64,000 nt of DNA. Source: Gammaproteobacteria bacterium (GTDB lineage: Bacteria > Pseudomonadota > Gammaproteobacteria > JAABTG01). The notes below the pieces were generated by a model that was given only the letters and a program-made list of their open reading frames with translations, did no database searches and had not been told where the DNA came from. This document shows, piece after piece, positions 3,799-32,727 of the stretch. Each line of letters opens with the position of its first letter. Position 1 is the first letter of the stretch. The DNA is taken from assembly GCA_034522055.1 (NCBI GenBank), contig JAXHLS010000006.1:420116-484115 (forward strand). The letters are read 5' to 3'. Position numbers and translations under genes: made by a program.

Positions 3799-3825
3799 TC
3801 CAAGCCCCAGCGCCGAAGGGACGCC

Positions 3826-5053: not shown

Positions 5054-5280
5054 CCATCAAGGTGCTGGATACCGTCGTATTGAAACGAGATATCGCCGAG
5101 CATCATCTCAAGAGCGGTGATCTTGGCGCAGTAGTGGAAGCTTATGAGCCGGACGGAATCGAAGTCGAGTTCGTTATGGGGACCGGTAAGACCCATGCGT
5201 TAGTGACACTGACGACGAATGATGTACGGTCGCTGTCGGAATCAGATGTTCTATCTGTAAGGTCCGAACACGCTGCCTGA
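5050..5280 (+). CDS. DUF4926-like small protein (pair member 2)
   Basis: 76 aa. IKVLDTVVLKRDIAEHHLKSGDLGAVVEAY..EVEFV...ALVTL resembles the DUF4926 family. Translationally coupled to 4703..5053. Confidence 0.6.
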   Translation: MTIKVLDTVVLKRDIAEHHLKSGDLGAVVEAYEPDGIEVEFVMGTGKTHALVTLTTNDVRSLSESDVLSVRSEHAA

Positions 5281-5557: not shown

Positions 5558-7166
5558 TTCATGATCCGTTAATATACCCCGGCGATAATGGAGGAACTGC
5601 GGAGGAACCGGCGTCCCATGGCTATACTGAACATCAAGAACTTCCCCGACGACCTCTACGAGCGCCTCAAGGAAAAGACCGCCGAGTCCCACGTCGACCG
5701 TTCCATAACCGGGCCCGAGGAGTTCATCCGCACCAACGTCCACGGCACCTTCACCCTGCTGGACGTGGCCCGCACCCTGTGGGCGGAAGACCCCAACTGC
5801 CGTTTCCTCCATGTCTCCACCGACGAGGTCTACGGCAGCCTGGGGCCCGACGATCCGCCCTTCACCGAACGCACGCCCTACGCCCCCAACAGCCCGTACT
5901 CCGCCTCCAAGGCGGCCTCCGACCACCTGGTACGCGCCTACCACCACACCTACGGCCTGCCGGTGGTCACCACCAACTGCTCCAACAACTACGGCCCCTA
6001 CCAGTTCCCGGAAAAGCTTATCCCCCTGGTCATCTTGAACGCTTTGGAGGGCAAACCCCTGCCGGTATACGGGGATGGCAAGAACATCCGCGACTGGCTG
6101 TACGTGGAGGACCATTGCAGCGGCATCGACGCCGCGTTGCACCGGGGTGGGGTAGGGGAGACCTACAACATCGGCGGCAACAACGAGATCCACAACATCG
6201 ACATCGTGCGCACCGTGTGCCGCCTGCTGGACGACAAGGTACCCGCCGACCGCCCCCGGGAGGACCTCATCACCTTCGTCAAGGACCGCCCCGGCCACGA
6301 CCGCCGCTACGCCATCGATGCCACCAGGACGGCCACCGAGCTGGCCTGGGAACCCGCCCACGGCTTCGCCGGGGGCATCGACAAGACCGTGGACTGGTAC
6401 CTGACCCACCGCCCCTGGTGCGAGGCCGTGCGCAACGAGACCTACCAGCGCTATTACGCCCAACAATACGGCGGCGGAGCCAACCCGGCATGAGCCACGC
6501 CCCATCGCCGAACGGAGGCCTCCTCCCGTCCTCTCTCGCTAAACTCCCTCTCCCCCTGGGAGAGGGCCGGGGTGAGGGCCCTTCCCACTTACTCCCCCTC
6601 CCCCTGGGAGAGGCACTATTCTTACTCCCTCTCCCTCTGGGAGAGGGCCGGGGTGAGGGCCCATCCCCATGACCACGGACGCCCAAAAAGCCACCATGGC
6701 GCCCCCCCCGGAAACGCCCCAAAAGCCCCGCCGCAACCTGGCCCAGCGCCTGTTGTCCGGCGCCGCCTGGGCCTTCGGCGCGAAAATCATCGGCGTCACC
6801 AGCGGCCTCGCCATCAACGCCTTCCTGGCGCGCATGCTTCCCACCGATGAAATGGGGGCCTACTTCCTCATCACCAGCGTTGTCATGTTCGCGGCCATCG
6901 TTGCCCGCTTCGGCCTCAAGCAGACCGTAGTGCGCCTGGTGGCGGAATCCATGGCGACCGGCCAACCGGGCAGGGCGCGGGCCACCCTGCGTATCGTCTA
7001 CGTCATCGTCACCCTGGGCGCCCTCATCGTAGGCGGCGGGTACTACCTGGGTTTCGGCACATGGCTGGCCGAGGATGTCTTCTCCATCCCGGTTCTGGCC
7101 AGCGTCACCGGCCTCACCGCCCTGTGGATTGCTGTTTTAGCCTTCCAAACCCCCGTGGCCGAGACC
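5558..7166. repeat. Diverged direct duplicate: copy of 1..~127 fused to a copy of 2989..4390
   Basis: 5558-5680 aligns to window positions 1-123, and 5684-7166 aligns to 2989-4390 (rmlB codon ~90 through wzx codon 166). Scattered substitutions. The REP spacer is 81 bp longer in the second copy. Confidence 0.9.
5588..6493 (+). pseudogene. In-frame chimera: first ~30 codons of the RHH antitoxin fused to RmlB residues ~90-354
   Basis: [30 protein letters not shown]|[16 protein letters not shown]... The junction lies in GCCGCCG microhomology (121-127 / 2983-2991). The Rossmann GxxGxxG part of RmlB is missing. Confidence 0.85.
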
Positions 7167-8072
7167 TTCCGGGGGCTCCACGATATCCGCCTGGCCGTTT
7201 TCCTGGACGGCATCCTGGCCAGCGCGTTGTTGGCGTCAGTCCTCGCTGTTTTCTGGTTCAATGGCCTGAAGGTGGACTTTGCTCAGGCCGTCCTGCTGTC
7301 CTTGGTGATGGCGGGGGTGAGTCTATTGTTCGGGATGCTGTTGTTTCTAAGAAGGGTCCATGTGTTTGAAGGGGAGGGGGATGTTGGAACCAAGGAAGTA
7401 GTGGCAATTTCGAGCCCACTCTTCGTAACCAATATCGCAAATCAAGCGATGACGAACTTCAGCCTATGGATTGCTGGAGCGTATCTTGTCGCCGAAGATG
7501 TAGCGCTGTACGGAGCAGCCTGGAAGTTGGTCGCGCTGGTGTCGCTTCCGTTGCTATTGATGAATATGTCAGTCCAGCCCTTCATTGCGCAACTCTATGT
7601 GACGGACAAAAAAGCACGCCTACAGAATGCGCTGCGGGGAACCGCTACGCTAGCCGGCGTGCCCGCAATGATAGTGCTCATAGCATTCATCTTGGCCGGC
7701 GCGACTATTCTAGAAGTGGTTTACGGTACTCACTATAGAGAAGCCGCGACAGTGCTTACTATTCTAAGCCTAGGCCTAATGGCAAACGTCGCTACTGGTT
7801 CATGCGGGATGGTGCTCGCCCTTACTGGGCACCAAAAAGCGCTGATGCAAGTAACCATTGCCGCAAGCCTGATCTCCGTCTCTCTAACCGTTCTAGGCGC
7901 CCAATATGGCGGGCTAGTTGGGATAGCAAGTGGTGTAGCCGTGGGCCGTGCCTTGCAGAATCTTCTGAACTGGTTAGTTACCCGCCGAAAGACAGGCCTC
8001 TGGACACACGCGACTGTTAGTCCTTCATTTGTTGGCCAAGCATGTAATCGAGTTCTTAGTCGTTCAACTTAA
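6669..8072 (+). CDS. wzx: Wzx-type polysaccharide flippase (MOP superfamily), compositionally mosaic
   Basis: 467-aa polytopic membrane protein, position and hydrophobic pattern typical of O-antigen/EPS flippases. G+C drops from ~67 % (line 6901) to ~50 % (line 7441) inside the gene. Confidence 0.8.
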   Translation: MTTDAQKATMAPPPETPQKPRRNLAQRLLSGAAWAFGAKIIGVTSGLAINAFLARMLPTDEMGAYFLITSVVMFAAIVARFGLKQTVVRLVAESMATGQPGRARATLRIVYVIVTLGALIVGGGYYLGFGTWLAEDVFSIPVLASVTGLTALWIAVLAFQTPVAETFRGLHDIRLAVFLDGILASALLASVLAVFWFNGLKVDFAQAVLLSLVMAGVSLLFGMLLFLRRVHVFEGEGDVGTKEVVAISSPLFVTNIANQAMTNFSLWIAGAYLVAEDVALYGAAWKLVALVSLPLLLMNMSVQPFIAQLYVTDKKARLQNALRGTATLAGVPAMIVLIAFILAGATILEVVYGTHYREAATVLTILSLGLMANVATGSCGMVLALTGHQKALMQVTIAASLISVSLTVLGAQYGGLVGIASGVAVGRALQNLLNWLVTRRKTGLWTHATVSPSFVGQACNRVLSRST

Positions 8073-8124
8073 GAAGATACCTAGGTCTAAAGGCCATTTA
8101 GTGCAACCAAACGAGAGCCATATA

Positions 8125-9039
8125 ATGAGTTCAACCAAACGAGACGTTGAAATTGTAAACTTCCTAGGGATCGGTGCGCCTAAAGCAGGAACCACCTGGT
8201 TATGGAAACAGCTAAATTCCCATCCGCAAATTTGGTTGCCGCCCCGTAAAGAAATACATTATTTTGACAGAAGCACGAAATATCCGACTTCTAGTCACTT
8301 AGCCTCCGATTCCGTGTTAACCCGAGCATTCGGAGTTCAAAAAAATAACCGTGAGTATCGACGACTTTTTTTAAAAGAACTAATAGGAAAATTAAGCAAA
8401 CGAAAGCTTGCGGAGGCGAAATGGACAATAAACTATTTCTCGGGACCTTTCGACGATGAATGGTACCGCTCTCTCTTTTCAATAGGTCAAGGTAAGGTAT
8501 GTGGCGAAATATCTCCCGGGTACTCACTTCTTGACGATCACGATGTCAAGAGAGTAAACGCCCTTCTTCCAAATGCGAAGATAATTTATATTCTTCGCGA
8601 TCCAGTCGAACGAGCCTGGTCCCAAGTAAGATACGAATGGACTAGGGGCCGACGGCAGAACTCCTCAAATGTGGAAGAACTGATTCGCCGGTGTCGCGAG
8701 CATAAAGTTATTGCTCGGGGACGCTATTCTGAAATAATCGCTCGGTGGAGCGGATGCTATACACGAAATCAAGTCTTTGTCGGATTTTTTGATGAGATGA
8801 TAACGGATCCGGCCAGCTTTCTCGAAAAAGTACTAAATTTTTTAGAGGTAAAAGACGGAAAAGAGCGGTATCAATGGCCAAAAGAAGCTCGAAGAGTCAT
8901 CAATGCTTCAAAGCCACAAACTATGCCTGCGGCGCTTAGAAAAGCCCTCTGCGCTGATTATCAAGCAGAATTAGAGTCTTTAGCGCAACAATACGGCGAT
9001 TATCCTAAAGGGTGGTTGGCCCGTTGTCGTATTGCATAA
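8125..9039 (+). CDS. Sulfotransferase 1
   Basis: Met33 of ORF 8029..9039. PAPS-binding 5'-PSB motif GAPKAGTTWL and 3'-PB-like ILRDPVERAWS. Confidence 0.85.
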   Translation: MSSTKRDVEIVNFLGIGAPKAGTTWLWKQLNSHPQIWLPPRKEIHYFDRSTKYPTSSHLASDSVLTRAFGVQKNNREYRRLFLKELIGKLSKRKLAEAKWTINYFSGPFDDEWYRSLFSIGQGKVCGEISPGYSLLDDHDVKRVNALLPNAKIIYILRDPVERAWSQVRYEWTRGRRQNSSNVEELIRRCREHKVIARGRYSEIIARWSGCYTRNQVFVGFFDEMITDPASFLEKVLNFLEVKDGKERYQWPKEARRVINASKPQTMPAALRKALCADYQAELESLAQQYGDYPKGWLARCRIA

Positions 9040-9095
9040 AGTAAAAATAATCGTGAATTAAATTAGATCTAGAAAAACTCTAGGTAAGTAAGGAA

Positions 9096-10361
9096 ATGAC
9101 ACGCACCGAATCTCTTAGCGCTAATAAGTACCAAGCAATTGGTTTCTTGGATTGGCTTTTTTTTATATGGCTGCTGTCTTTACCGTTTCGTACCTTCAGC
9201 TTAGTCGGCGACCTATCGTTAGATAATATGTTGACGCCTTTTCTAATAATAGTATGGCTAACTCGTCATTTATTCCTTCAAGAACCCTTTCGAGCATATT
9301 TAATTCGTTTTTCTATTCCTATTTTCCTTATGCTGGCGTATTTGTCATTAATGCATCTTAGGCCAATGGGAAGTGAGGAGACCGCAGCGGCGCGATTAAT
9401 TGACGAAATAAAAATTCTAACATACTTCCTAATTCCTATTTTCTACGTCACTGACCACGTTAGGTTACAGATTGCCAACGGAACGATTGTGTTTCAGGCA
9501 CTAATTGGAGGCGCGTCTGCTCTAGCTGCTTCATTGGGGTTTATCGAGTTTGCCAACGTAAGATTTGAAGAATCGCGCCTAGGTATTGACGAACTTCCCA
9601 AGGCTATAGGCCTGTATGGGTCATATGGAGACCTCGCGTTACTTTACGGGTACGCGTTAGTCGTCATACTATTTGGACAAGTGCCACGCCTGCTGCCCGC
9701 CGGAAAGGCATTCCTCACTCGGGGAATTCTGAGTATTTCATTAATAATTGGCTGGCTAGGCTCCCAGTCCCGAAATGTTTTGCTTACATCATTGATAGCA
9801 ATAGCCTGTTATTTGATTTTGCGAAGCTTATATCGGCAAGATTCTCACAAAAGAGCCCTCTCAGGGATAATTTTACTATCAGTCGCCTTATTTGGCGTTG
9901 GCGGTATATACTATTTTTCTGAAGCAATCTATGAATTAATCGCGACATTGGGAGGATCCGGCGCCGCTCGCACTGTTCAATCGCGTGTCGATTCATACAC
10001 CGTCGCGCAAGCCTTGATTAAAGACTCACCTATCTTCGGCGTTGGAGTTGCCGAATATCAGCGATATGGTGAAATCCTAGACGGCCTTCATAATATGTGG
10101 CTGTCAATTTGGGCGCTCGGCGGAGTGGGCGCCCCGATCTGTTTGCTATTTCTATTGTTGCTGGGCGCCAAAGTGGCACACCGTTTTGCCATTCTTGAAA
10201 AGTCTAAAGAAGCAATTATGATCGTTGTATTAATTATCTGCATTCTACAGGCAACTCAGTTTTACGTCGCGAAAAATTCACAGGCCCTTTGGGTCATGAT
10301 GGGGGTTTCTATGGTTTACTTCGTATACGGTCGTCGAATGCTGCCTAGACCAACTAGGTAG
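9096..10361 (+). CDS. wzy: Wzy-type polymerase / O-antigen-ligase-family membrane protein
   Basis: 421 aa, many hydrophobic helices, large loop with GLHNMWLSIWALGG (Wzy_C-like H-N-x-W/L motif). Located in a polysaccharide locus. Confidence 0.75.
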   Translation: MTRTESLSANKYQAIGFLDWLFFIWLLSLPFRTFSLVGDLSLDNMLTPFLIIVWLTRHLFLQEPFRAYLIRFSIPIFLMLAYLSLMHLRPMGSEETAAARLIDEIKILTYFLIPIFYVTDHVRLQIANGTIVFQALIGGASALAASLGFIEFANVRFEESRLGIDELPKAIGLYGSYGDLALLYGYALVVILFGQVPRLLPAGKAFLTRGILSISLIIGWLGSQSRNVLLTSLIAIACYLILRSLYRQDSHKRALSGIILLSVALFGVGGIYYFSEAIYELIATLGGSGAARTVQSRVDSYTVAQALIKDSPIFGVGVAEYQRYGEILDGLHNMWLSIWALGGVGAPICLLFLLLLGAKVAHRFAILEKSKEAIMIVVLIICILQATQFYVAKNSQALWVMMGVSMVYFVYGRRMLPRPTR

Positions 10362-10439
10362 CGGCAAGGAATAAATTGTTTTCCCGATTGGCGAAATTAA
10401 AGAAAGGTCGGCAAATTATGTTAACGCGCGCTTTATAAG

Positions 10440-11405
10440 ATGGAACCAGTATATATTTTTTCTTTGCCGCGCTCAGGTTCCACGCTATTACAACGCTCTC
10501 TAGCTGGACGTAGCGAAATTGCCACAGTTTCAGAACCATGGTTCTTGCTGCCTTTGATCTACTCGCTAAAGAAAGAGGGCGTCTACGCAGAATATAGTCA
10601 TAGGACGTTATATTCGGCAATAGAGGACTTTTACCAACAATTGCCCGGCGGCAAAAGAGACTACATGGAAAGTATTGCGGTCTTTGCTAAAGAACTTTAT
10701 GAAAAGGCTGGCGGTTCAGAGAAAATGTATTTTCTGGATAAGACGCCTCGCTACCATCTTATATGCCAAGAGATAATTGATTTATTTCCAGGTGGGAAGT
10801 TTATATTTCTGTGGCGTAATCCTTTGGCATGTTTGGCTTCAAGACTTCACAGTTATGACGGGAACTGGAGAGTGCATCGAGCGCGGGTGGACCTATATAC
10901 CGGGCTGGTGAATCTTGTTAACACGGCCAAAAATAATGAGGAGCAAGTGCTTCAAGTACGGTACGAAGACTTTGTTGCTTTTCCAGAACAAGAGATGAGG
11001 CGAATTCTAGACTATCTATCGCTAAGTGACGATGTGGAAGATGGTATTCATTTTAACAATTCATCACTAAAGGGACGCATGGGCGATCAGCGTGGGGTCA
11101 GTAAGTATACTGAAGTATCAGTGAACTCCGTTGAGGAGTGGAAGAAGACGTTGGCCTCCCCTGTTCGGAAAAGTTGGGCAAAGCGCTATTTAGAATGGAT
11201 TGGAGAAGAACGATTGGCATATATTGGCCATGATAAAGCGGCTCTGGTTAGCGAACTAAAGGAACTCGATTCCAACCACAAGCAAATGGCGTCGGATATA
11301 ACCAGGATCGCATTTGGGGCACTAGATAGTTTGTTAGATATAGAAATTGTTCTAGAAAAAATTAAGGCAAGGCGTAAGGGTGGGATATATTTGCCACTTA
11401 GGTAA
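10440..11405 (+). CDS. Sulfotransferase 2
   Basis: 321 aa. N-terminal IFSLPRSGSTLLQ P-loop-like PAPS motif and FLWRNPLACLAS second motif. Confidence 0.8.
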   Translation: MEPVYIFSLPRSGSTLLQRSLAGRSEIATVSEPWFLLPLIYSLKKEGVYAEYSHRTLYSAIEDFYQQLPGGKRDYMESIAVFAKELYEKAGGSEKMYFLDKTPRYHLICQEIIDLFPGGKFIFLWRNPLACLASRLHSYDGNWRVHRARVDLYTGLVNLVNTAKNNEEQVLQVRYEDFVAFPEQEMRRILDYLSLSDDVEDGIHFNNSSLKGRMGDQRGVSKYTEVSVNSVEEWKKTLASPVRKSWAKRYLEWIGEERLAYIGHDKAALVSELKELDSNHKQMASDITRIAFGALDSLLDIEIVLEKIKARRKGGIYLPLR

Positions 11406-11466
11406 AGTGCATTACCCGGGATATGATGGGCTATGGCGAAATAAAGTTTCTGTGCGAGGGAAAAGA

Positions 11467-12675
11467 GTGAACGTTGCTATCTTCGCTACTTCAGATTTTC
11501 CCGATGGTACTGCAACTGCGTATAGGCTCCGCATGCTTGGAAGATGCCTTGTTGAGGAGAATGTTGGATGTTATATCTGCCTTATACACCCGTCTACAAA
11601 AGGTCGAGATGAAACATTAAGTTCTGATGATCAGAGCGTAGATGGAATTACATTTTTCTTCGCGACTGGTAGGAATAAGCGGCCGATTCAGCGAAGCGCT
11701 CGGATCATAGAGGTTTTGAAAGGATGGTTTGGTTCAGTGCGTTTTCTTTGGCGCCTCAGAAAGCGCCAGTCTATTGACGCCATTCTATTGTTTACACCGA
11801 ACTTCGTTAAGGTTTGGCCGATTATCTTATATGGAGGCATCCTAAGAATTCCTCTATTTTCAGAGGTTTGTGAGATCCGGAGTTCCATGGTGGACCAGCA
11901 TGTAAATGTCAGCACTATACTGAAACTCGGCAATCAAGTAACAGAAACTTTAATTCCGTTGTTAAGTAGAGGGGTGATAGCAATATCTCGGCCAATAAGA
12001 GATTTTTACGTAAGAAAAGGAGTCAAAAAAGAGGATGTTATTATCATTCCTGCTCTAGTAGAGACTTCCCAATTTTCAATAGAAAGTTCAGATAAAGTGC
12101 CGCCACTTGAAAACAGTAGATATTTTTTAAGTTCTGGATCCCTCAATGAGAAAGAGGGTTTGAGTTACCTGCTTGAAGCATTATCCAAGCTTAGGGAGAC
12201 CCACGAGGACGTCAGTTTGGTGCTTACTGGCGGGATAAAGGACGCGGAGCAGCTTACAATAATAGGCATGGCCAAGGAGTATGATGTATCGAATGCGATA
12301 GTTTTTACGGGGATGCTGACAAGGGAAGAGCTCGCCTGGGCATACCAAAACGCGCAAGGTCTGCTCGCTTGTAGGGTGGATAGCAAGTTTGCACAGTACG
12401 GCTTTCCAAACAAGCTAGTAGAGTATCTGGCATCAGGTACTCCCGTTATATTAACTCCGATAGGGGATATCGGTGCTTACTTGAGAGATCCCTATGATGC
12501 GTACTTCGCGGAAGCGCGGAGCGGTGAAAGCATAGCGGTGAAGATGATGGAAGTACTTAGTAACCCTAATCAAGCTCGTGTTGTAGGTCGAAGTGGTCAG
12601 GAGGTCGCTTTCTCGCACTTTGAGAGGCGGATGCATTCGAGGACCTTGACTGCGTTTTTACAGGATCGACTCTAG
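11467..12675 (+). CDS. Glycosyltransferase (GT-B fold, GT4-like)
   Basis: ORF 11380..12675. I prefer the GTG at 11467 preceded by GAGGGA. C-terminal half has FPNKLVEYLASGTPVILT (EX7E-like) typical of GT4 enzymes. Confidence 0.7.
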   Translation: MNVAIFATSDFPDGTATAYRLRMLGRCLVEENVGCYICLIHPSTKGRDETLSSDDQSVDGITFFFATGRNKRPIQRSARIIEVLKGWFGSVRFLWRLRKRQSIDAILLFTPNFVKVWPIILYGGILRIPLFSEVCEIRSSMVDQHVNVSTILKLGNQVTETLIPLLSRGVIAISRPIRDFYVRKGVKKEDVIIIPALVETSQFSIESSDKVPPLENSRYFLSSGSLNEKEGLSYLLEALSKLRETHEDVSLVLTGGIKDAEQLTIIGMAKEYDVSNAIVFTGMLTREELAWAYQNAQGLLACRVDSKFAQYGFPNKLVEYLASGTPVILTPIGDIGAYLRDPYDAYFAEARSGESIAVKMMEVLSNPNQARVVGRSGQEVAFSHFERRMHSRTLTAFLQDRL

Positions 12676-13026
12676 GAAGAAACTGAGCGGTTTAGCGTTG
12701 CGAAGGGGGCCTCTAACGTTATTAGAGGCTCGATACTTTCTGATTCGTGTGCTGGATGCCGTATAGAAAGGGATGCTTTTAATGCACTTTTACTTCGTGC
12801 GTTAAACGCAAAAGTTGGCCAACCACGAATTGCCTTGACTGGTTCGCCATAGAGCGTTACGTACGAGACGATAGATAAAGATCATTAAGTAATGCAGTCT
12901 AGGGCCGTCCCGTCGAAGGGCACTAACAATTAGCAGTAGGGGAGGGTAATAGAAGTAGGGGCCCGTATGCTTTGTTATTGTTGATGATAGGTTCTTCTCA
13001 ACATACTGGAAACGCGAGAGGGTACT

Positions 13027-13791
13027 GTGAAAAAGTTTATGATTGTTTCAGCTCAGCGGTCAGGCTCGACGTGGGTTGCGGACATGTTGGGTAGCCATCC
13101 GGAAGTCACTATGTTTTCGGAGTTATTTCTTAGGAGTGGCGAGGGATTTCCCGATTGGTCCCCAGAAGGAGGCGTTGCTTACTGGAATACGTATAAGAAA
13201 GAACGCAAATGGGCCGAAGGGGTTTTCTTACGCCCAAGGCTTGTTTGGGTATATCTGAATAGCGTATTTGCCCCGAGATCTAAGAAGTCTGCTTGTGGGT
13301 TGAAGGTTATGTACGATCAATTCATAAGATTTCCAGAAATTTTATTGTATATCCTAGTAAAGCGAGTATCCGTTATTCATTTGGTAAGAGAAGACGTTGT
13401 CGCCTCTTATATATCTGGTCGAATTAGTCATGCGAGAAAGCAACCTCACGCCAGGACAGATGAAGCCGTCAAAGATGTGTCCGTACATATTGACGTTAAG
13501 AGAATGAAGAAGAAATTGGCACGAAGTGAGGCCATGATTAAGGCGACGAGAGTGTTATTTAAGGTGCTCGGGATAAAGTATATAGAAATTGGTTATGAGG
13601 ATCTGGACCATAACCGAAAAAACTTTGACAACTTGCTGCTCTTCGTTGGTGTAGAAATTCACGACTTAAAATCCTCATTAAGGAAATTGCGGGAAGCCGG
13701 GTACGGTAAGTATATAGAGAACAGGAAGGAAATTTTAGAGGCATTTTCTAATACGAAATGGAACCAATTAGCTAAAGAAGCTTTGTCATGA
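13027..13791 (+). CDS. Sulfotransferase 3 (Stf0-like)
   Basis: 254 aa. MIVSAQRSGSTWVADML PAPS-binding motif near the N-terminus. HLVREDVVASYIS second motif. Confidence 0.75.
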   Translation: MKKFMIVSAQRSGSTWVADMLGSHPEVTMFSELFLRSGEGFPDWSPEGGVAYWNTYKKERKWAEGVFLRPRLVWVYLNSVFAPRSKKSACGLKVMYDQFIRFPEILLYILVKRVSVIHLVREDVVASYISGRISHARKQPHARTDEAVKDVSVHIDVKRMKKKLARSEAMIKATRVLFKVLGIKYIEIGYEDLDHNRKNFDNLLLFVGVEIHDLKSSLRKLREAGYGKYIENRKEILEAFSNTKWNQLAKEALS

Positions 13792-13871
13792 AGTATCCTT
13801 GTTCAAAGGGATCTCTCGAATTGGAAGAGTTTACGGCTCCCAATTTTAGTTGACGGGCAGGAGGCGGTTAT

Positions 13872-14948
13872 ATGTTCCGTAGGACTTTTTTGAAGGCGGC
13901 CGCCGGAGTTTGCTTTTCCGGAGCTTTTTCCAAAGTGGGAGCCGCGAGTTGGAGTGGCGCTAGGGGGGTTAATTGTAATTTCGCGCTTGCTGAGGAGGAC
14001 TTGGTAAGATTGCGGTCCTTGAATTGTTGTCTTGTGAGGCAAAGTTTCGCGTTTAGACCGTTAATTAGTAAAGAGCCACCCTATCATTACGACGAGGAGA
14101 TGTTTCGATATCTTCGTTGGCTCGTAGACAGAACGAGAGAATATGGGATAAAGATCGTATTAGATCCTCATACGAGTCCGGGTTTCAGAAAAAACACGAG
14201 TACAAAGGCAGATGATGCCTTCTGGTATGATTCCAAGTGGCATGATTATCTTATTGACCTATGGGGGCGGTTGGCAAAGGAATTTCGCGACGATGGAGAC
14301 GTGTTGATTGGATACGACCTAGTAAATGAGCCGACTTTGCCGAGGCAGACCGCTCTGGCTGGGGCTTCGGATTATGGGCTATTGATCAGGCGGCTAATTG
14401 AAGAAGTTAGACGTTACGATCTAGACCAGTGGTTGATTGTTCAGATTCCAAGGATACATGGCGGGGGTACGAATGGTATTGGTCCGTTTTTCAGGGATGT
14501 TTCTGGCATGCCGCAACTTGTGGATGAACGTTTGGTTTACAGCTTTCATATGTATTGGCCATTTCGATTCACGTTTTCCGGACTTAAAGATCTTAAGGAT
14601 GGTGTGACAACTTACCCTGGTCGAGTTGGTAGGATGCAGGTAGATAAGAGCACCTTACAGGAAGTCTTAGAGCCAATTCGAGAACTTGGAATCATGCAGG
14701 AACGCCCGATTTTTGTGGGGGAATTTAGTGCGGTTCGGTGGTTAGGTGATTCGGGAAATGAGTATCTGAGGGATTTGATTGATATATTTGAACAGTATAG
14801 ATGGAGTTGGGCGTATCATGCTTTTCGCTCCGCGCATATGTGGGATGCGGAATTGTCGAATTTCGAGCGATCTGATAAAAGTTATGTCGGTGATACACCC
14901 AGGATTAGATTATTGAACGAGGCTTTCAAGCTGAGCAAATGTTGGTGA
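13872..14948 (+). CDS. Glycoside hydrolase family 5-like enzyme with twin-arginine signal
   Basis: 358 aa. MFRRTFLKAAAG matches the Tat motif (S/T)RRxFLK. GYDLVNEP (acid/base) and VGEFS (nucleophile) are GH5 hallmarks. Confidence 0.8.
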   Translation: MFRRTFLKAAAGVCFSGAFSKVGAASWSGARGVNCNFALAEEDLVRLRSLNCCLVRQSFAFRPLISKEPPYHYDEEMFRYLRWLVDRTREYGIKIVLDPHTSPGFRKNTSTKADDAFWYDSKWHDYLIDLWGRLAKEFRDDGDVLIGYDLVNEPTLPRQTALAGASDYGLLIRRLIEEVRRYDLDQWLIVQIPRIHGGGTNGIGPFFRDVSGMPQLVDERLVYSFHMYWPFRFTFSGLKDLKDGVTTYPGRVGRMQVDKSTLQEVLEPIRELGIMQERPIFVGEFSAVRWLGDSGNEYLRDLIDIFEQYRWSWAYHAFRSAHMWDAELSNFERSDKSYVGDTPRIRLLNEAFKLSKCW

Positions 14949-14976
14949 TGTTTTATAAATGCGGAAATAGAGAAAA

Positions 14977-15867
14977 GTGAATTTAATCATTGCCGGGGTG
15001 AACAAAGCGGGAACGACATCCTTGTTCTCGATGTTAGCAGCGCATCCTGAAGTATGCGGGTCTCTCGTGAAAGAGACGTGTTATTTCCTTCCAATAAGAT
15101 ATGGAGGGCGTATTGGTCCAATTCAAGACTACGAGCGTCAGTTTCAACATTGTGGACGCCACGCATACTTGATGGAAAGCACGCCGGGTTATTTTTATGG
15201 CGGAAAGGAAATCGCTGAAGCGATTAAGGAAACGCTTGGCTCAGTAAGGGTAGTGGTTGTATTGAGAGAGCCTGTATCAAGAGCTTTTTCTTTTTTTAGA
15301 TTCCAGAAGGCCATGCTTAACTTGCCGGAGGGCATGTCATTCACGGAGTATGTCACCGCTTGCGGTTCGTTTGAGTTGCAAGACTTAAGATTGCAGGAAA
15401 ATAATGCATACTTTGGATTGGAGGGTGGCAATTACGGGAAGTACCTGCAGGATTGGGTGGGTATTTATGGTCAGGAGTTGAAAATTGTTTTTTTTGAGGA
15501 CTTGGCTAATGCTCCACAGGACAGCCTAGGTGAATTGCTCGACTGGTTAGGGCTTGATAATTGTGTTGATGAGGAATTAACTAGGAGTAGTGAGAATGTG
15601 ACGGTTGCGGTTAGGTGGCGTCAGTTTCAACGCTTTGCGTTAACGATGAATCGGCATTATGAATCTTTTTTTCGACGGCACCCAGGCGTGAAGTGGGTGC
15701 TTCGCCGCGCATACTATTCTATTAATGGAGACAAAAAGATTGAGGAGTTTCCTGAGGAAACAAGAAGGCAATTGATAGAGTACTATAGGGCGTCAAATAG
15801 GCAAGCGAGGTCTGTTTTGAGTAGTCAAGGGTACGATAATGTACCTGAGTGGCTATCAGAAGTTTAA
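14977..15867 (+). CDS. Sulfotransferase 4
   Basis: 296 aa (GTG start). GVNKAGTTSLF 5'-PSB motif and VLREPVSRAFSF 3'-PB motif. Confidence 0.85.
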   Translation: MNLIIAGVNKAGTTSLFSMLAAHPEVCGSLVKETCYFLPIRYGGRIGPIQDYERQFQHCGRHAYLMESTPGYFYGGKEIAEAIKETLGSVRVVVVLREPVSRAFSFFRFQKAMLNLPEGMSFTEYVTACGSFELQDLRLQENNAYFGLEGGNYGKYLQDWVGIYGQELKIVFFEDLANAPQDSLGELLDWLGLDNCVDEELTRSSENVTVAVRWRQFQRFALTMNRHYESFFRRHPGVKWVLRRAYYSINGDKKIEEFPEETRRQLIEYYRASNRQARSVLSSQGYDNVPEWLSEV

Positions 15868-15921
15868 AAGTGCTTAGCGTGAAGTATATTTCGGTGTTAG
15901 TTTCTATGCAGGTAATTCTTT

Positions 15922-17034
15922 TTAAGCGGGAAGTGTGACGTGATATTTATCTAGCACGTAAGACCAAGCAAAGGAGCGTCGATGTAATTGTATGCTTGCT
16001 TTTTTCATTGTTAACAAATCTTCGGAGTCTGGAGTTAGGGCAGTTAGTGCGTTAGATAGGGAATCTGCGTCAGCAAAGTAGATTGAAACTGGACCGGCGA
16101 CCCAACTATTGAAGTTATTGTCATGAGCGATAATCGGATTCCCCGCGCCCAGCGCCTCGACTAGGGAGGGATTGGTCCCGCCGACTTGATGCCCGTGAAT
16201 GTAAAAAGCGGCGTGGTACCGCAGCGCTTGCACATTGCGTTTGTCGTAGATCGCCCCGGGAAAAAGTACCGCGTTGTTTGCAGCATCTATTACGGCTCGA
16301 TGGTATGGGTTCTGCTCATCATAGTTGCCCAGGACCACCAGCTTGTAGCCTCGCTCCTGCTGGGAGAATGCCGACACGATTTCCAGGATCGAGTTCTCGG
16401 GCTCGGGCCGAGCGATTACGAGGGCGTACTTCCCGGGTTCGATGGGCAAATCCTCATATGGTGGGGGAGGGTTCTCGTAGAGGGCGTCCGAGCCGTAAGG
16501 GATCATGGTTATCTTCTTTCGTGAGACCCGGGTCGCCAGGTGGTTCTCGATCTCCGGATGGTCGGCGATGAGATGGTTCGCCAGGTAACAGCCGGCCCAT
16601 TCGTTCAGGTACAGCCAGAGACGTTCCATAGGTGACCACTTGGCCCGCTTCCACTCGATGCCATCCATATTCATGAGGTGGGGGATTCTCTTCAAGCGGT
16701 AGGGAATAGAGAAGATCGCCGTGTTGTATCCGAGGGTGAGTACGACGCCCTTTTCCTTGATGGCGTGGCGCATGGCCTTCCAGTCGAAGAGAACGGTGCC
16801 TTTCGCGCCCGGTTGGTTCACCGGGATGATCACCCGGCGTACGCCTTGCCATTCGTCTTCCCGTATCGGGCCGGTACCGTCTTCCTGGCAGTACACAGTG
16901 ACCCGCCACCCCTGCTGAACCATATAAGGTGCCAGATGCTCGGCGAAGGTCTCGAAGCCGCCGTGCTGTGCGGGGACGCCGCGGGTACCTAGGATACGGA
17001 GATGCGGTTTGTCAGGGTTTCGCGGATCCGTCAT
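15922..17034 (-). CDS. Glycosyltransferase with DUF1972-type N-terminus (GT4-like)
   Basis: 370 aa. ILGTRGVPAQHGGFETFAEHLAPY and GHQVGGTNPSLVEALGAG are characteristic. The 3' ~200 nt of the gene is AT-rich and the rest is GC-rich. Confidence 0.8.
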   Translation of the reverse strand: MTDPRNPDKPHLRILGTRGVPAQHGGFETFAEHLAPYMVQQGWRVTVYCQEDGTGPIREDEWQGVRRVIIPVNQPGAKGTVLFDWKAMRHAIKEKGVVLTLGYNTAIFSIPYRLKRIPHLMNMDGIEWKRAKWSPMERLWLYLNEWAGCYLANHLIADHPEIENHLATRVSRKKITMIPYGSDALYENPPPPYEDLPIEPGKYALVIARPEPENSILEIVSAFSQQERGYKLVVLGNYDEQNPYHRAVIDAANNAVLFPGAIYDKRNVQALRYHAAFYIHGHQVGGTNPSLVEALGAGNPIIAHDNNFNSWVAGPVSIYFADADSLSNALTALTPDSEDLLTMKKASIQLHRRSFAWSYVLDKYHVTLPA

Positions 17035-18028
17035 CTATATATCCGAGTTTGGAAGACATATCGTCGAAGAGTGGGATGAGCTCTGGGATCAATTCCGGTT
17101 TGGGCGCCGGGACCTTGGTATACAGCACCTTGGTCGCGTAGGTCAGGACGTCGGCATCCGGGTTGAGCTGACAGTGGTGGAATAGCTTAGCCAACTCCGC
17201 TTCGGGGGCGGCGACCAGGTCTTCATAGCGAATGTGGTGGACCTGTTTCGGGTAGCGTTCGACGGCGGCGAGGCCCTCCCGCATGGTGACGATCCATTCC
17301 GTAGCGGCGCGGTTCACCTGGTCAAGGTCTGTGGGATTGAGCCCGTGGAGGGGCGCAAGCTCCGGATCGCCGCGAACCAGTTCGTCCCACAGGTAACGCC
17401 ATTTGCAGTCGTTGCGGCCCCACCAATCCTCTGTTTCGTTACCGTCTGCGACGCCTTTTCGGTCAGACCAAGTGGAAATGGAACGACAGGCGTCGGCACC
17501 ATTGCGCGTGATCAGTATAAAGCGCGCATCGGGGAAGAGGCTTAGGACGTAGTCTATTCGGAATACCAGTTCAGGGTACTTGTCCAGCACGCGGCTGGCG
17601 GCGACGGCACGGGCATAGCGGCTGTATAGGCGCTGCGCGGCAAGTCGCTCTTTCTCGGAGATTGTTTCCGGCACTAAACGGAACCACGCGGGCCCCTGAC
17701 TGTAGTCACCGGTCACGTCATGGGCCGGGTCGATGACGGTCCACATGGCCTTCGGCTCGTTGAGGAAGCCGACATGGCGATGGAGAGAGAGGATGAGGCC
17801 TAGGATGGTCGTGCCGGAACGGCCCAGGCCAATCAAAAAGATTGGGGCCTTGGGTTGCGGGTTTCCCGGAAATGCCGCAAGGGTTCGCAGCAGCCCGAAG
17901 ACTACCGGATTGAACCACTGCCCCTTGGTGGTGTGAGGACGGCCTTCGAACAGGGCGTAGCTCGCCAGGCGCCGCACAACCTTTGGCAAGCCGAAGCTTC
18001 GGTATTCCCTATCGATCTGGGCGACCAT
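17012..18028 (-). CDS. Sulfotransferase 5
   Basis: 338 aa. FLIGLGRSGTTILGLIL P-loop-like PAPS motif and LITRNGADACRS second motif. Confidence 0.75.
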   Translation of the reverse strand: MVAQIDREYRSFGLPKVVRRLASYALFEGRPHTTKGQWFNPVVFGLLRTLAAFPGNPQPKAPIFLIGLGRSGTTILGLILSLHRHVGFLNEPKAMWTVIDPAHDVTGDYSQGPAWFRLVPETISEKERLAAQRLYSRYARAVAASRVLDKYPELVFRIDYVLSLFPDARFILITRNGADACRSISTWSDRKGVADGNETEDWWGRNDCKWRYLWDELVRGDPELAPLHGLNPTDLDQVNRAATEWIVTMREGLAAVERYPKQVHHIRYEDLVAAPEAELAKLFHHCQLNPDADVLTYATKVLYTKVPAPKPELIPELIPLFDDMSSKLGYIDDGSAKP

Positions 18029-18030
18029 CG

Positions 18031-19257
18031 TCAGGCAGCCTTCCGCGAGACCAGTTCTTGGTATAGGGCGCTCATCTGTTCGAAATACCGTTCAATCGTG
18101 TAGTGGTTGGCCACGCATTCTCGGGCGGCCTTTCCCTGCTCGGTGACGGCGGGGTCCGGCAAATCGCGGTATCGGAGGAGGGTATCGGTGAGCGCGTCGG
18201 TGTCGCCAGACGGGAAGAGGGCGCCGGTGCTGCCGGGCTGGACCAGTTCGGGTATGCCACCGATGTCTGCGCCGATGACGGGTTTGCCCAAGGCATAGCT
18301 CTCCAGCACCGACATGGGCGCGTTCTCGTACCACTCCGACGGCAGTACAACAGCGCGTGCGGAACGGATGAGGTCCCACAGGGCATCGCCGCTTTGGTAG
18401 CCCAGGAATTCAATGTTCGGCGCGTCGCCGGCCAACCGGTGCAGGTCTTGCTCGATGGGGCCGGTGCCAGCGATGCGGAGTTGGATGCCCGAGTTCATGG
18501 CCGCGGCGATGAGCGTCCGCAGGCCCTTCTCGGGCGCCAGCCGGCCGAAGTATACAAACGCCTCTCCCGCGGTAAAGTCGGGCTTGTAGCTCTCCGCGTG
18601 GACGTAGTTGGGGATGTGGACGAGTTTCTCCCGCGGCCATCCCCATTCGGCGAGCTTCTCGCCGTAGAACCGGCTGGGGACGACAACACGGTCCAGGTTC
18701 CGCTTGTAGACCCCCAGGAGGTGATGAACGGCGGACTCGATGGCAATGAGGCTGCTGATTCCCGCAGAGTTGTGAATGCACCGATGGAGTGCCACGTTGA
18801 GGACGTTGCCGCCCTTGCAGCGCTCGCAGACTCCACCGCTGTTGAGCATCTTGTATGCGGGACAGGCGATCTTGAGATCGTGGGCGGTAAGCACCGTAGG
18901 GACCCCTCTTTTCTTCAGCAGGGGCAGCACCGATGGGGACAGATGGTGGTAGATGCAATGAATGTGCGCCACGTTGGCGGGGAACCGATCCAACAGCGTG
19001 CCAAGTTTGCGCTGGGCCTCGAACGAGTAAATCACCTTGGAAGCCATTTTCGCCTTGGCCAGCGGTGAGTAGCTGTGTCCGAACTCGATCTCGTCCACGA
19101 AGTACTCGCTCCATGGCGACGGATCGTTCTTGGGATGGTGCATCGCCATCATGGCCGTATCCCACCCGTTTCGGCGGAACAGGGCATCGTGTTCGAGGAA
19201 CACCACGTCCGAACCACCGCGTCGGTAGTGGTAATTATTGAGAGACAGCAGTTTCAA
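18031..19257 (-). CDS. Glycosyltransferase family 4
   Basis: 408 aa. LPSEWYENAPMSVLESYALGKPVIGADIGGIPELV (EX7E) motif. Confidence 0.85.
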   Translation of the reverse strand: MKLLSLNNYHYRRGGSDVVFLEHDALFRRNGWDTAMMAMHHPKNDPSPWSEYFVDEIEFGHSYSPLAKAKMASKVIYSFEAQRKLGTLLDRFPANVAHIHCIYHHLSPSVLPLLKKRGVPTVLTAHDLKIACPAYKMLNSGGVCERCKGGNVLNVALHRCIHNSAGISSLIAIESAVHHLLGVYKRNLDRVVVPSRFYGEKLAEWGWPREKLVHIPNYVHAESYKPDFTAGEAFVYFGRLAPEKGLRTLIAAAMNSGIQLRIAGTGPIEQDLHRLAGDAPNIEFLGYQSGDALWDLIRSARAVVLPSEWYENAPMSVLESYALGKPVIGADIGGIPELVQPGSTGALFPSGDTDALTDTLLRYRDLPDPAVTEQGKAARECVANHYTIERYFEQMSALYQELVSRKAA

Positions 19258-19398
19258 GTGGGGCGAGACCGGTTAGATAAGAAAAATCCGGCGCGATGCT
19301 ACCACAAGGATCTTTCTACTTGTTGGCGGTACGTCTCACTACGGTGACCTCGGCAAGAATCGTTTTTGGAATGAGACGGCCGAAAGGGCTGGGAGGCC

Positions 19399-19492
19399 GA
19401 GACCGGCCCCTGCACCGTGTCGGTGCATCCGCGGCATTTCTGCCCCACGGAGGTCGAGACCCTGCTGGGAGATCCCACCAAGGCCAAAGGGA
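19399..19492 (+). pseudogene. Degenerate relic of a gmd 3' end
   Basis: gagaccggcccctgcaccgtg...cacggaggtcgagaccctgctgggagatcccaccaaggccaaaggg aligns with gmd codons ETGACIV...[16 protein letters not shown], with many mismatches. Confidence 0.7.
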
Positions 19493-19746
19493 AAGGATGC
19501 ATGGCTTGCACAGTTCTCGTCTCTGACGGGTTTTGATTCTAGTTCCGGCATGTGGCCGTATAATGATACGGGCCGGTGCGTGGTTGCTCGCTCTAAGGGG
19601 TATGGCTTTAGACAGATCGTATGACAGTAGGTGTCATACCGCTGCCGTAGACTCCGCCGCCGTCAGGCCGGAAGGCCGCGGAAAGAAGCAGAGCCGGGTG
19701 ATTACGCCCGTTGGGCTTAACAGAACATGCGAGGGGTGAATTAGTG

Positions 19747-20844
19747 ATGGGTGGGAATAGAAAGAAGGCGCTGATAACGGGCGTGACGGGCCAGGACGGG
19801 GCATACCTCGCCGAGTTCCTGTTGGAGAAGGGCTACGAGGTCCATGGCATCAAGCGCCGGGCGTCGTCCTTCAATACGGACCGTATTGACCATCTCTACC
19901 AGGACCCCCACGAGACGGGGCGGCAGTTCGTGCTCCACTACGGGGACCTGACGGATTCCACCAACCTCATTCGCATCGTCCAGGAGATCCAGCCGGACGA
20001 GATCTACAACCTGGGGGCCCAGAGCCACGTGGCGGTGTCCTTCGAGAGCCCGGAGTACACGGCGGACAGCGTGGGCCTGGGGGCGTTGCGCATGCTGGAG
20101 GCCATCCGCATCGCCGGGCTAACGGACAAGGCTCGCTTCTACCAGGCCTCCACCTCGGAACTCTACGGCCTGGTGCAGGAGGTGCCCCAGAAAGAGACCA
20201 CGCCCTTCTACCCGCGCTCGCCCTACGCGGCGGCCAAGCTCTATGCCTACTGGATAACGGTGAACTACCGCGAGGCCTACGGCATGTATGCCTGCAACGG
20301 CATCCTGTTCAACCACGAATCACCCGTGCGCGGCGAGACCTTCGTCACCCGCAAGATCACCCGCGCCCTGGCCCGTATCCACCTGGGGCTCCAGGACACC
20401 CTGTACCTCGGCAACATGGATGCCCTGCGGGACTGGGGCCATGCCAAGGACTACGTGGAAATGCAGTGGCTGATGCTCCAGCAGGAGGTGCCGGATGATT
20501 TCTGCATCGCCACCGGGGTGCAGTACTCGGTGCGCCAGTTCGTGGAGCGCGCCTACTCGCACCTGGGCAAGGCCATCCGCTGGGAAGGGCAGGGGGTGGA
20601 CGAGAAGGGCTATGACACCGAGACGGGGGCGTGCATCGTGGCGGTGGACCCGCGCTACTTCCGCCCCACGGAGGTGGAGACCCTGCTGGGGGACCCCACC
20701 AAGGCCAAGGAGAAGCTGGGCTGGACGCCAAAGATCACCTTCGACGAGATGGTGACGGAGATGATGGAAAACGACCTGCAACTGGCCAAGCGCGATGCGC
20801 TGGTGAAGGAGGCGGGGTACCGGGCGTTTGATTATCACGAGTGA
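19747..20844 (+). CDS. gmd: GDP-mannose 4,6-dehydratase (copy 1)
   Basis: Met13 of ORF 19711..20844. [39 protein letters not shown] and full-length Gmd-like sequence. Confidence 0.95.
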
Positions 20845-20914
20845 GGCGCGCCGTGCCGCGGCATGGCCGGGTCAGTTCGCGCCCAAGGGCGCCCCTACGG
20901 GTTGAGTTGATTCC

Positions 20915-21856
20915 ATGAACAAAGACGCACGCATCTATGTAGCCGGCCACCGCGGCCTGGTGGGGTCGGCCATCGTCCGGGCTTTGGAGGCCGGGGGGTA
21001 TGGCAACATCATCATCCGCACCAGCAGTGAGCTGGACCTCAAGGACCAGGCGGCGGTGCGGGCCTTCTATGCCGCCGAGGCGCCGGACTACGTGTTCGTG
21101 GCCGCGGCCAAGGTGGGGGGGATCCTGGCCAACGACACCTACCCGGCCGAGTTCCTCTACGACAACCTGATGATCGAGGCCAACCTCATCCATGGTGCCC
21201 ACGAGGCCGGGGTGCAGAAGCTGCTGTTCCTGGGCAGCACCTGCATCTACCCCAAGCTGGCGCCCCAGCCCATGAACGAGGACGCCCTGCTCACGGGCCC
21301 CCTGGAACCCACCAACGAGTGGTACGCGGTGGCCAAGATCGCCGGCATCAAGCTGTGCCAGGCCTACCAGAAGCAGTACGGGTCGCGCTTCATCTCCGCC
21401 ATGCCCACCAACCTCTACGGCCCCGGGGACAATTTCGATCTGGAGAAGTCCCACGTCATGCCGGCGCTCATCCGCAAGTTCCACGAGGCGAAGGTGAACG
21501 ACGCCGGCGCGGTAACGGTATGGGGCACGGGCACGCCGCGGCGCGAGTTCTGCCACGTGGACGACTGCGCCGCGGCCTGCCTGTTCCTGATGGAGCACTA
21601 CGACGGCTACGACTTCGTCAACATCGGCGTGGGGGAGGACATCACCATCCGCGAGCTGGTGGAGATGGTGCAACGGGCGGTGGGCTTCGCGGGCGAGGTG
21701 CTGTGGGACACCACCAAGCCCGACGGCACGCCGCGCAAGCTGGTGGACGTGGGGCGCCTCCATGCGCTGGGCTGGCGGGCGCGCATGCCCTTGGAGGAGG
21801 GGGTGCGTTCCACCTACCAGTGGTTCCTGGAGCACCAGGGGGGTTACCGGGGGTGA
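20915..21856 (+). CDS. fcl: GDP-L-fucose synthase
   Basis: 313 aa. [17 protein letters not shown] Rossmann start and Fcl/WcaG-like sequence. Directly downstream of gmd. Confidence 0.93.
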
Positions 21857-32709: not shown

Positions 32710-32727
32710 CGGGTGGGTTCGATTCGC

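Follow-up and report, generated by a model that had tools for sequence, protein, structure and literature searches.

The 64,000-nucleotide (nt) stretch analyzed here (contig JAXHLS010000006.1, positions 420,116 to 484,115; hereafter, the window) comes from the metagenome-assembled genome (MAG) of a gammaproteobacterium and carries a Wzx/Wzy-type polysaccharide cluster in which five intact sulfotransferase genes, here called ST1 to ST5, lie between wzx and gmd (Table 1). The precursor genes rmlACDB are located upstream and gmd-fcl downstream of this sulfotransferase core. An earlier note, made by reading the sequence, had placed motifs of sulfotransferases that use 3′-phosphoadenosine 5′-phosphosulfate (PAPS) at 8125, 10440, 13027, 14977, and 17012, and had recognized a Wzy protein, three GT4-like glycosyltransferases, and a GH5 hydrolase between wzx and gmd. 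All five sets of motifs were found in the translations, in proteins scoring above the cut-off of Pfam PF13469, and the other proteins are present where it had put them, with Pfam support. The dTDP-rhamnose and GDP-fucose genes seen as bracketing the locus were confirmed by NCBIfam, Pfam, and named homologues, whereas the limits proposed for the locus (7300–19257) need correction, since position 7300 falls inside wzx.

The eleven open reading frames (ORFs) of the core are all intact, and their Pfam domain coverage is essentially end to end. The wzx frame is chimeric and stays open over 467 amino acids (aa), with nine or more hydrophobic segments, and the candidate Wzy protein, with seven or more such segments, shares 32% identity with its positional counterpart in a locus of the isolate Candidatus Litorirhabdus singularis IMCC14734 (L047). 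Among the precursor enzymes, RmlA, Gmd, and Fcl score over the NCBIfam equivalog cut-offs, and the best named homologue of RmlB is that of Thiohalobacter sp. COW1 (79% identity; 72% for another Thiohalobacter relative). The glycosyltransferase GT_B is probably a rhamnosyltransferase, as it scores best in NCBIfam against the Cps2T beta-1,4-rhamnosyltransferase, a lead only (166.2 bits, well under the equivalog cut-off of 500), although one in agreement with the adjacent rml genes. The GH5 protein keeps the NEP and GEF catalytic motifs, its translation begins with a twin-arginine (Tat)-type signal (MFRRTFLK...), and its nearest solved structures are endoglucanases, for example PDB 8b3y (138.8 bits), with 8AG9 and 8ANX also near. 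A hairpin resembling a terminator is found just 3′ of the glycosyltransferase gene GT_A. A promoter/terminator scan of 6400–19800 showed no excess over shuffled sequences (16 vs. 12.3 ± 3.0; 16 vs. 14.8 ± 4.0), and Rfam gave no match inside the polysaccharide locus, group II introns being detected downstream only.

The sulfotransferases were defined by the gathering score of Pfam PF13469 (Sulfotransfer_3; 27 bits), and an iterated hidden Markov model (HMM) scan of every window ORF of at least 120 aa returned exactly ST1 to ST5. That five proteins encoded within 10 kb should all match a single superfamily above cut-off cannot be put down to chance. Because pairwise identity among them is at most 22% (21% over 151 residues for ST1 and ST4, 22% over 247 for ST2 and ST5, the other pairs having little in common past the N-terminal loop), the five represent separate lineages and not recent duplicates. 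None has a predicted membrane segment or a signal peptide, which fits the use of cytoplasmic PAPS. All five proteins contain the 5′-phosphosulfate-binding (5′-PSB) loop, taken as the pattern [KR]-x-G-[ST]-[ST] after the first strand, the R...S motif for the 3′-phosphate, and a glutamate where the catalytic base is expected. Loop and R...S motif read, respectively, PKAGTT and RDPVERAWS in ST1, PRSGST and WRNPLACLAS in ST2, QRSGST and REDVVASYIS in ST3, NKAGTT and REPVSRAFS in ST4, and GRSGTT and TRNGADACRS in ST5. The catalytic base of sulfotransferases is a glutamate, or a histidine in cytosolic SULTs, ~20 residues past the 5′-PSB loop, and the glutamates of ST1 to ST5 are candidates for this role.

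Judging from their matches, the five proteins appear to fall into three clades. ST1 and ST4 are 3-OST/NDST-like. The first, with the motifs GAPKAGTT, KEIHYF, and RDPVERAWS, matches the bacterial sulfotransferase PDB 3rnl (E = 1.1e-15) and 3-OST/NDST (~1e-8), and the second, with GVNKAGTT, KETCYF, and REPVSRAFS, matches 3-OST-3A (E = 1.4e-09), to whose E-x-H-F-F its KETCYF aligns, and NDST (E = 2.3e-09). N-sulfation, hinted at by the NDST similarity of both, is unlikely, as no deacetylase is present. ST2 and ST5 are TPST/CurM/NoeE-like. ST2 matches the CurM sulfotransferase domain (E = 3.3e-07) and also tyrosylprotein sulfotransferases, and belongs to a family of 2979 homologues (best non-self identity at most 51%; best 48% in GTDB species representatives), of which 28 members share the invariant positions R11, G13, S14, T15, E32, K101, R126, and S134. 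ST5 matches tick TPST (E = 0.002), with its GRSGTT, NEP, DKYP, and TRNG...S aligned to the TPST motifs and the NEP glutamate aligned with the GEET motif. Both ST2 and ST5 match the NCBIfam model of NoeE weakly, far under its cut-off.

ST3, the remaining one, is NodH/Stf0-like and belongs to a rare clade, with only 15 relatives detected, at no more than 36% identity. Among these, the RSGST and H-L-x-R...S motifs are conserved, and the glutamate E32 is kept in at least 90%. As the weakest Pfam scorer, it was the one protein whose fold was also checked by predicted structure. A sequence search of the PDB gave no significant match for it, while an AlphaFold2 model built from a 16-sequence alignment (predicted local distance difference test, pLDDT, 89.3; predicted template modeling score, pTM, 0.86) retrieved only PAPS sulfotransferases at ranks 1–24 when compared with the PDB by Foldseek, with modest template modeling (TM) scores of 0.37–0.53 (0.50/0.53 against Stf0). 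One relative carries the JGI name "LPS sulfotransferase NodH," and the closest one is located in another polysaccharide cluster, together with WbaP, Wzy, and a DUF1972 glycosyltransferase. The profile searches that the earlier note had proposed as a check on the sulfotransferase folds thus came out in favor, by Pfam and solved-structure matches and, for ST3, by the model and Foldseek as well.

For comparison, GTDB species representatives were searched with an alignment of the ST2 family; 552 loci were confirmed among the first 600 pattern matches, and the best 80 were kept. By iterated HMMs, at least two sulfotransferase-like ORFs within 10 kb were counted in 34 of these 80 loci, at least three in 16, and at least four in 5, counts that are slightly high, as one ORF each in the loci L025, L018, and L068 lacks Pfam confirmation. 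A Gaiellales MAG (L025) carries five Pfam-confirmed sulfotransferases within ~8 kb, and a Rubrobacteraceae MAG (L018) and an Actinomycetota MAG (L068) carry four each. Five sulfotransferases are the top of the observed range, with at least one equal, and exceed any characterized cluster (two in that of synechan, three in that of Vibrio sp. KMM 8419). The view that such a number is unusual therefore stands against characterized systems, but its rarity had been overstated. A Wzx homologue was found within 10 kb of the ST2-family gene in 29 of the 80 loci and an APS-kinase (CysC) homologue in 10, neighbors that tie the family to polysaccharide assembly and PAPS. The family is spread over Rubrobacteraceae, Solirubrobacterales, Gaiellales, Nitrospirota, Zetaproteobacteria, Poribacteria, cyanobacteria, and a halobacterial archaeon MAG, and its genes are often directly 3′ of wzx, which suggests a wzx-sulfotransferase module widely shared across lineages.

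Table 1. Features of the window (positions in nt from its first base; GC3, GC fraction at third codon positions)
Feature	Position	Strand	GC3	Basis or remark
rmlA, glucose-1-phosphate thymidylyltransferase	230–1153	+	0.90	NCBIfam TIGR01207, 494.4 bits (cut-off 360.65)
rmlC, dTDP-4-dehydrorhamnose 3,5-epimerase	1150–1722	+		Pfam PF00908, 248.6 bits
rmlD, dTDP-4-dehydrorhamnose reductase	1719–2741	+		Pfam PF04321, 298.3 bits; GTG start at 1719
rmlB, full copy, dTDP-glucose 4,6-dehydratase	2734–3798	+		Named homologues; Pfam
wzx′ remnant, truncated (first ~166 codons; duplicate of wzx 5′ end)	3893–4435	+		DNA match
DUF6883/DUF4926 gene pair	4703–5280
′rmlB, truncated copy, fused to 5′ piece duplicating window 1–127	5588–6493	+		DNA match
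wzx, flippase, chimeric	6669–8072	+	0.86 (5′ 498 nt, host-like); 0.57 (3′ 906 nt)	Pfam PF01943, 52.5 bits; also MatE, Polysacc_synt_3 (PF13440)
ST1, sulfotransferase, 3-OST/NDST-like clade	8125–9039	+		PF13469, 60.8 bits, E = 2.9e-16; PF00685, 56.1 bits
wzy, Wzy-type polymerase (candidate), Wzy_C membrane protein	9096–10361	+		PF04932, 48.7 bits (cut-off 31.7)
ST2, sulfotransferase, CurM-ST/TPST-like clade	10440–11405	+		PF13469, 98.9 bits, E = 6.6e-28
GT_A, GT4 glycosyltransferase	11467–12675	+		PF00534, 76.6 bits; start as called on independent contig L001
Terminator-like hairpin	12707–12731
ST3, sulfotransferase, NodH/Stf0-like, rare clade	13027–13791	+		PF13469, 35.7 bits, E = 1.4e-08
GH5 glycoside hydrolase	13872–14948	+		PF00150, 70.1 bits
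ST4, sulfotransferase, 3-OST/NDST-like clade	14977–15867	+		PF13469, 40.3 bits; PF00685, 38.8 bits
GT_B, DUF1972-type GT4	15922–17034	-		PF09314 (DUF1972), 71.1 bits
ST5, sulfotransferase, TPST/CurM-like clade	17012–18028	-	0.72	PF13469, 97.5 bits, E = 1.7e-27
GT_C, GT4 glycosyltransferase	18031–19257	-	0.79	PF00534, 95.2 bits; PF13692, 93.5 bits
ORF called on L001 (11040–12005), opposite GT_C	18103–19068	+		No Pfam hit; likely mis-call
gmd, GDP-mannose 4,6-dehydratase	19747–20846	+		TIGR01472, 602.2 bits (cut-off 415)
fcl, GDP-L-fucose synthase	20915–21856	+		NF047922, 523.8 bits (cut-off 500)
gmd 3′-end copies	~19384, 24269, 29413, 33831, 35519, 37298, 38383, 43242, 44722, 47744, 48763, 50928, 59148	+		81–96% identity
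gmd, second full copy	33178–34277			95.7% identical to the first
gmd, C-terminal half	35321–35965
fcl 3′-end fragments	23005–23393, 32727–32975
IS21-family elements	24798–28159, 53602–56963	Inverted		IstA (Mu-transposase C-terminal domain) and IstB; 96.5% identity
Group II introns	30765–32709, 41213–43228, 46258–47730, 48851–50765, 51756–53601, 57102–59117; also 37141–37291, 39925–40075			Reverse transcriptase/maturase ORFs; Rfam domain hits
Type II toxin-antitoxin genes	28159–28658, 30276–30662, 36425–37110, 37912–38340, 39115–39743, 40519–40905, 43934–44341, 45368–45832, 48047–48439
23-nt repeat	2706, 3861, 6556, 6637	+
23-nt repeat	24583, 24640, 34295, 35983, 37373, 38821, 43555	-
Sigma-54 activator	62043–63425			All models below cut-off

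A low-GC cassette within the core

The GC content drops from 60–69% to ~44% between 8.0 and 16.0 kb. In agreement with this, GC3 is 0.82–0.94 in the rml genes, gmd, fcl, and the first 498 nt of wzx, 0.38–0.46 in ST1, wzy, ST2, GT_A, ST3, GH5, and ST4, and 0.66–0.79 in GT_B, ST5, and GT_C, with ST5 being intermediate. The low-GC segment spans ~7166–15900 and carries 7 of the 11 core genes, including four of the five sulfotransferases. Its junction in wzx, at 7166, is the end of the homology between wzx and the truncated wzx′ copy upstream (4391/7166). Because the GC drop and the end of homology coincide at this position, the core is taken to be a horizontally acquired cassette that was joined within wzx.

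The sequence upstream of the junction contains a partial tandem duplication of the rmlB 3′ part and the wzx 5′ part (2984–4390 and 5679–7166, 93–96% identity), in which 3848–4390 equals 6624–7166 at 93.6% and 2984–3891 equals 5679–6586 at 95.6%. Between the two halves lie the DUF6883/DUF4926 pair and a second copy of the stretch that precedes rmlA (1–127, repeated at 5558–5684 with 95% identity). The wzx′ copy adjoins the full rmlB on its 3′ side, and the truncated ′rmlB precedes the full wzx. The serotype-specific core, from the 3′ part of wzx through ST4, was thus acquired horizontally as one low-GC cassette, and the partial duplication is the scar of this event. In the databases searched, nothing closely related to the cassette was found, the best non-self identities being at most 51% for ST2 and 36% for ST3. 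An independent public contig (Logan, SRR26473340; L001) is identical (100%) to window 7064–19863 and spans both GC transitions, evidence against a chimera made in assembly. The gene call of that contig on the + strand opposite GT_C, which itself scores 95 bits, is likely a mis-call in high-GC DNA.

The predicted pathway and its alternatives

We consider it probable that the locus serves the Wzx/Wzy-dependent biosynthesis of a sulfated surface polysaccharide, either an O-antigen or an exopolysaccharide, free or capsular, with rhamnose and/or fucose. Direct homology identifies both sugar-precursor pathways, a MOP flippase, the Wzy_C protein, three GT4 glycosyltransferases, five sulfotransferases, and the GH5. 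By homology, RmlABCD would provide dTDP-L-rhamnose, and Gmd and Fcl would provide GDP-L-fucose. A priming phosphoglycosyl transferase encoded elsewhere would start the unit on undecaprenyl phosphate, and GT_B, GT_A, and GT_C would lengthen it to roughly four sugars. Several of ST1 to ST5, as soluble, cytoplasmic, PAPS-dependent enzymes, may then sulfate different hydroxyls of the lipid-linked unit, a step suggested by their mutual divergence, their intact catalytic motifs, and the absence of export signals. The sulfated unit would be flipped by Wzx and polymerized by Wzy, while the GH5, presumably exported by the Tat route, may trim or release the polymer in the periplasm, by analogy with other hydrolases of exopolysaccharide loci. 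The position between rml and gmd/fcl and the lack of Wza/Wzc nearby suggest an O-antigen as the product; the exported hydrolase and the comparison with L047 suggest an exopolysaccharide.

Several observations weigh against this reading. As the earlier note had remarked, the window lacks genes for PAPS synthesis and priming: tblastn (E ≤ 1) with E. coli CysC, CysN, and CysD and with WbaP-type and WecA-type proteins gave no match in the 64 kb, bar a 25-residue noise hit, and Pfam revealed no priming transferase on the larger window ORFs. Also as it had stated, no chain-length regulator or co-polymerase and no outer-membrane export protein was seen among the window ORFs examined, nor was a ligase. 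A priming gene may be elsewhere, as wecA is for many O-antigen loci. The Wzy_C domain is common to Wzy polymerases and WaaL ligases; here, adjacency to wzx and the matching gene in L047 favor a Wzy polymerase. The cluster is known from the gene sequences of an uncultured MAG alone, and the acceptor specificity of ST1 to ST5 cannot be read from these, with the NoeE and Cps2T matches far under the cut-offs. Four of the sulfotransferases lie on recent low-GC DNA in a host of ~65% GC and may be poorly expressed. Finally, the presence of only three glycosyltransferases beside the five sulfotransferases would imply a polymer with more than one sulfate per sugar, and we know of no bacterial polysaccharide shown to carry so many.

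This last point bears on the most far-reaching form of the proposal, in which all five enzymes would act on one rhamnose/fucose repeat of ~four sugars and the product, with more than one sulfate per sugar, would be a bacterial counterpart of fucoidan or rhamnan sulfate. We regard this form as doubtful. If true, it would be the most densely sulfated prokaryotic polysaccharide described, made by a compact cluster (~13 kb; ~22 kb with the precursor genes) transferable to a production host.

A lightly sulfated polymer, with the five sulfotransferases not converging on one repeat unit, is the likeliest of the alternatives, if itself rather unlikely. Some of the enzymes would then act on lipid A or core, on another glycan or on glycolipids, or would be redundant, conditional, or inactive. 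The two compositional strata, with ST1 to ST4 in the low-GC3 group and ST5 outside it, argue that the set was not assembled as one co-evolved whole, and the number of glycosyltransferases, only three, points in the same direction. So do the cysteine that ST4 has for histidine next to its catalytic glutamate and the finding that XssE, one of the two sulfotransferases of synechan, is dispensable for polymer production. On the other hand, the PAPS-binding and base residues are kept in all five proteins, and their genes are interleaved with wzx, wzy, and those of the glycosyltransferases. These arrays are compact and run mostly in one direction, and no gap in them exceeds 100 nt save one of 352 nt. 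Arrays of several sulfotransferases also recur in unrelated genomes, suggesting selection for the combination.

The low-GC cassette could instead be a recent import, silent or decaying in a recombination hot spot, from which no sulfated polymer is made now. The strong compositional mismatch with the surroundings, the chimeric wzx with the truncated wzx′ and ′rmlB copies upstream of it, and the crowding of the 40 kb downstream with IS21 elements, group II introns, toxin-antitoxin modules, and gmd and fcl fragments would all agree with this. However, 0 of the 11 core genes is frameshifted or truncated, domain coverage is full, and even the chimeric wzx is a single open frame with hydrophobic segments throughout; moreover, functional O-antigen and capsule loci normally have central genes of low GC, and we judge a silent cassette to be improbable. 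Sulfation of non-glycans (peptide tyrosines, as by RaxST, lipids, or small metabolites) by some of the enzymes, especially ST2 and ST5, whose best solved-structure matches are the CurM and tyrosylprotein sulfotransferases, is highly improbable, given that no peptide or polyketide partner gene or dedicated transporter is found nearby, that Wzx homologues accompany the ST2 family as counted above, and that both proteins also weakly match the Nod-factor fucose sulfotransferase NoeE.

The rearranged region downstream of fcl

Over the 40 kb downstream of fcl, the window is extensively rearranged. The 3′ end of gmd (up to ~450 nt) recurs ~13 times in 19384–59195, always on the + strand; most of them stop at or close to the stop codon of gmd, while their 5′ ends vary. 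The region holds a second full gmd, a C-terminal half, and ~ten further 3′ fragments, as well as two pieces from the 3′ end of fcl. Of the 10 aligned gmd copies, 6 share an insertion of 13 nt that breaks the frame, CCCACTGTCGGCA, which indicates that the pieces were copied as fragments. Insertions anchored by homology, recurring at the border of the polysaccharide locus, could have given rise to the repeats, as could tandem island accretion.

Toxin-antitoxin modules, introns, and insertion sequence (IS) elements are found between the gmd fragments. The two IS21-family elements are inverted relative to each other and could allow inversion of the ~25 kb between them. The group II introns belong to two families, with several full or partial copies in the window and many more elsewhere in the same MAG; the copy at 51756–53601 stops where an IS21 element begins (53602), and a match to domain 5/6 is located past this element, at 56997–57067. 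The type II toxin-antitoxin set includes at least six PIN-domain toxins, Phd/YefM, a DUF433 protein, and two BrnT/BrnA-CopG pairs that are 98.8% identical over 500 nt. Finally, a GC-rich 23-nt repeat, CTGGGAGAGGGCCGGGGTGAGGG, is present in 11 copies in the window with at most three mismatches (0 expected by chance). Its sites are intergenic, for example between rmlB and wzx and just after gmd copies, and it yields spurious "GEGRGEG" peptide strings in overlapping ORFs. It is likely a repetitive extragenic palindromic (REP)-type element of the source genome.

Comparison with known systems

Heparin, fucoidan, carrageenan, and other sulfated polysaccharides are of value and are at present sourced from animals or algae. 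To our knowledge, few bacterial pathways have been characterized, and bacterial polysaccharide sulfotransferases with defined acceptors are almost absent; the cluster offers five divergent candidate enzymes together with a likely glycan scaffold. Beyond cyanobacteria, Actinomycetota, Gammaproteobacteria, and other phyla also have polysaccharide loci in which several sulfotransferases are encoded, and sulfated bacterial surface glycans may be commoner in nature than the literature on characterized systems suggests. At the level of single enzymes, ST1 to ST5 have the PAPS-binding fold and motifs in common with 3-OST/NDST, Stf0, NodH, and NoeE, at identities of 13–22%, and NCBIfam scores, 66.5 and 38.4, are far under the equivalog cut-off of 500.

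At the level of the locus, partial synteny was observed with L047, the locus of Candidatus L. singularis IMCC14734, at protein identities of 29–45%. Its order is a sulfotransferase gene, an ORF of unknown function, wzx, an ST3-like gene, wzy, an ST2-like gene, a GT_A-like gene, another sulfotransferase gene, a GT4, gmd, fcl, exosortase, and a WecA-type gene. By Pfam, three of its sulfotransferases exceed the cut-off, and a further one scores exactly that value. In comparison with the present locus, it additionally has genes for a heparinase II/III-like protein, UDP-glucose dehydrogenase, an exosortase (EpsH-DUF3485), and a WecA-type protein, and it lacks GH5 and, within the fetched 21 kb, rml genes. 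A link to exosortase/PEP-CTERM systems, raised by L047 and by weak stp2/stp3 matches of GT_C and GT_A, was discarded, as no exosortase is found in the window and as the PrsR model (TIGR02915) scores no better on the sigma-54 activator at 62043–63425 than NifA, NtrC, and others, all below cut-off.

The capsule locus of Vibrio sp. KMM 8419, in which three sulfotransferases are spread over an 80-gene region with extra cysDNC copies (PMC11641403), is likewise gammaproteobacterial and shares with the present one an rml operon, sulfotransferases, mobile elements, and signs of horizontal transfer. It differs in following the ABC-transporter (Kps) capsule pathway and in having cysDNC in the locus, which the present window does not. 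Its product is a chemically proven sulfated polymer containing rhamnose.

The closest functional parallel is the synechan xss cluster on plasmid pSYSM of Synechocystis sp. PCC 6803, with two sulfotransferases and eight glycosyltransferases, whose product carries two sulfates per eight-sugar repeat, sulfation being proposed to occur before flipping, on the cytoplasmic side (Maeda et al. 2021, PMC8205485). Both systems are Wzx/Wzy-dependent and have sulfotransferases of different subfamilies interleaved with glycosyltransferases, and the synechan product contains rhamnose; in synechan, the number of sulfates is roughly that of the sulfotransferases. The synechan cluster, however, has its own priming transferase (XssP), co-polymerase (XssK), and regulators (XssQ, XssR, and XssS), none of which was seen here, and lacks the GH5 and the gmd/fcl genes of the present locus. 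No STAND (as XssQ) or two-component genes were found beside the cluster, the only regulator detected being the generic sigma-54 activator 43 kb off. By BLASTP against the pSYSM proteins, the sulfotransferases match at no more than 33% identity over no more than 61% coverage (ST1 and XssA, 32% over 147 aa; ST5 and XssE, 33% over 131 aa), and Wzx and Wzy gave no match at E ≤ 0.01; the two sets of proteins are not orthologs. In its predicted mode of action, the locus resembles the synechan system without being a member of it. Its type, the Wzx/Wzy polysaccharide cluster with embedded PAPS sulfotransferases, is already known, and the locus is a rich instance of this type, distinguished by having five sulfotransferases to three glycosyltransferases and by its cassette architecture.

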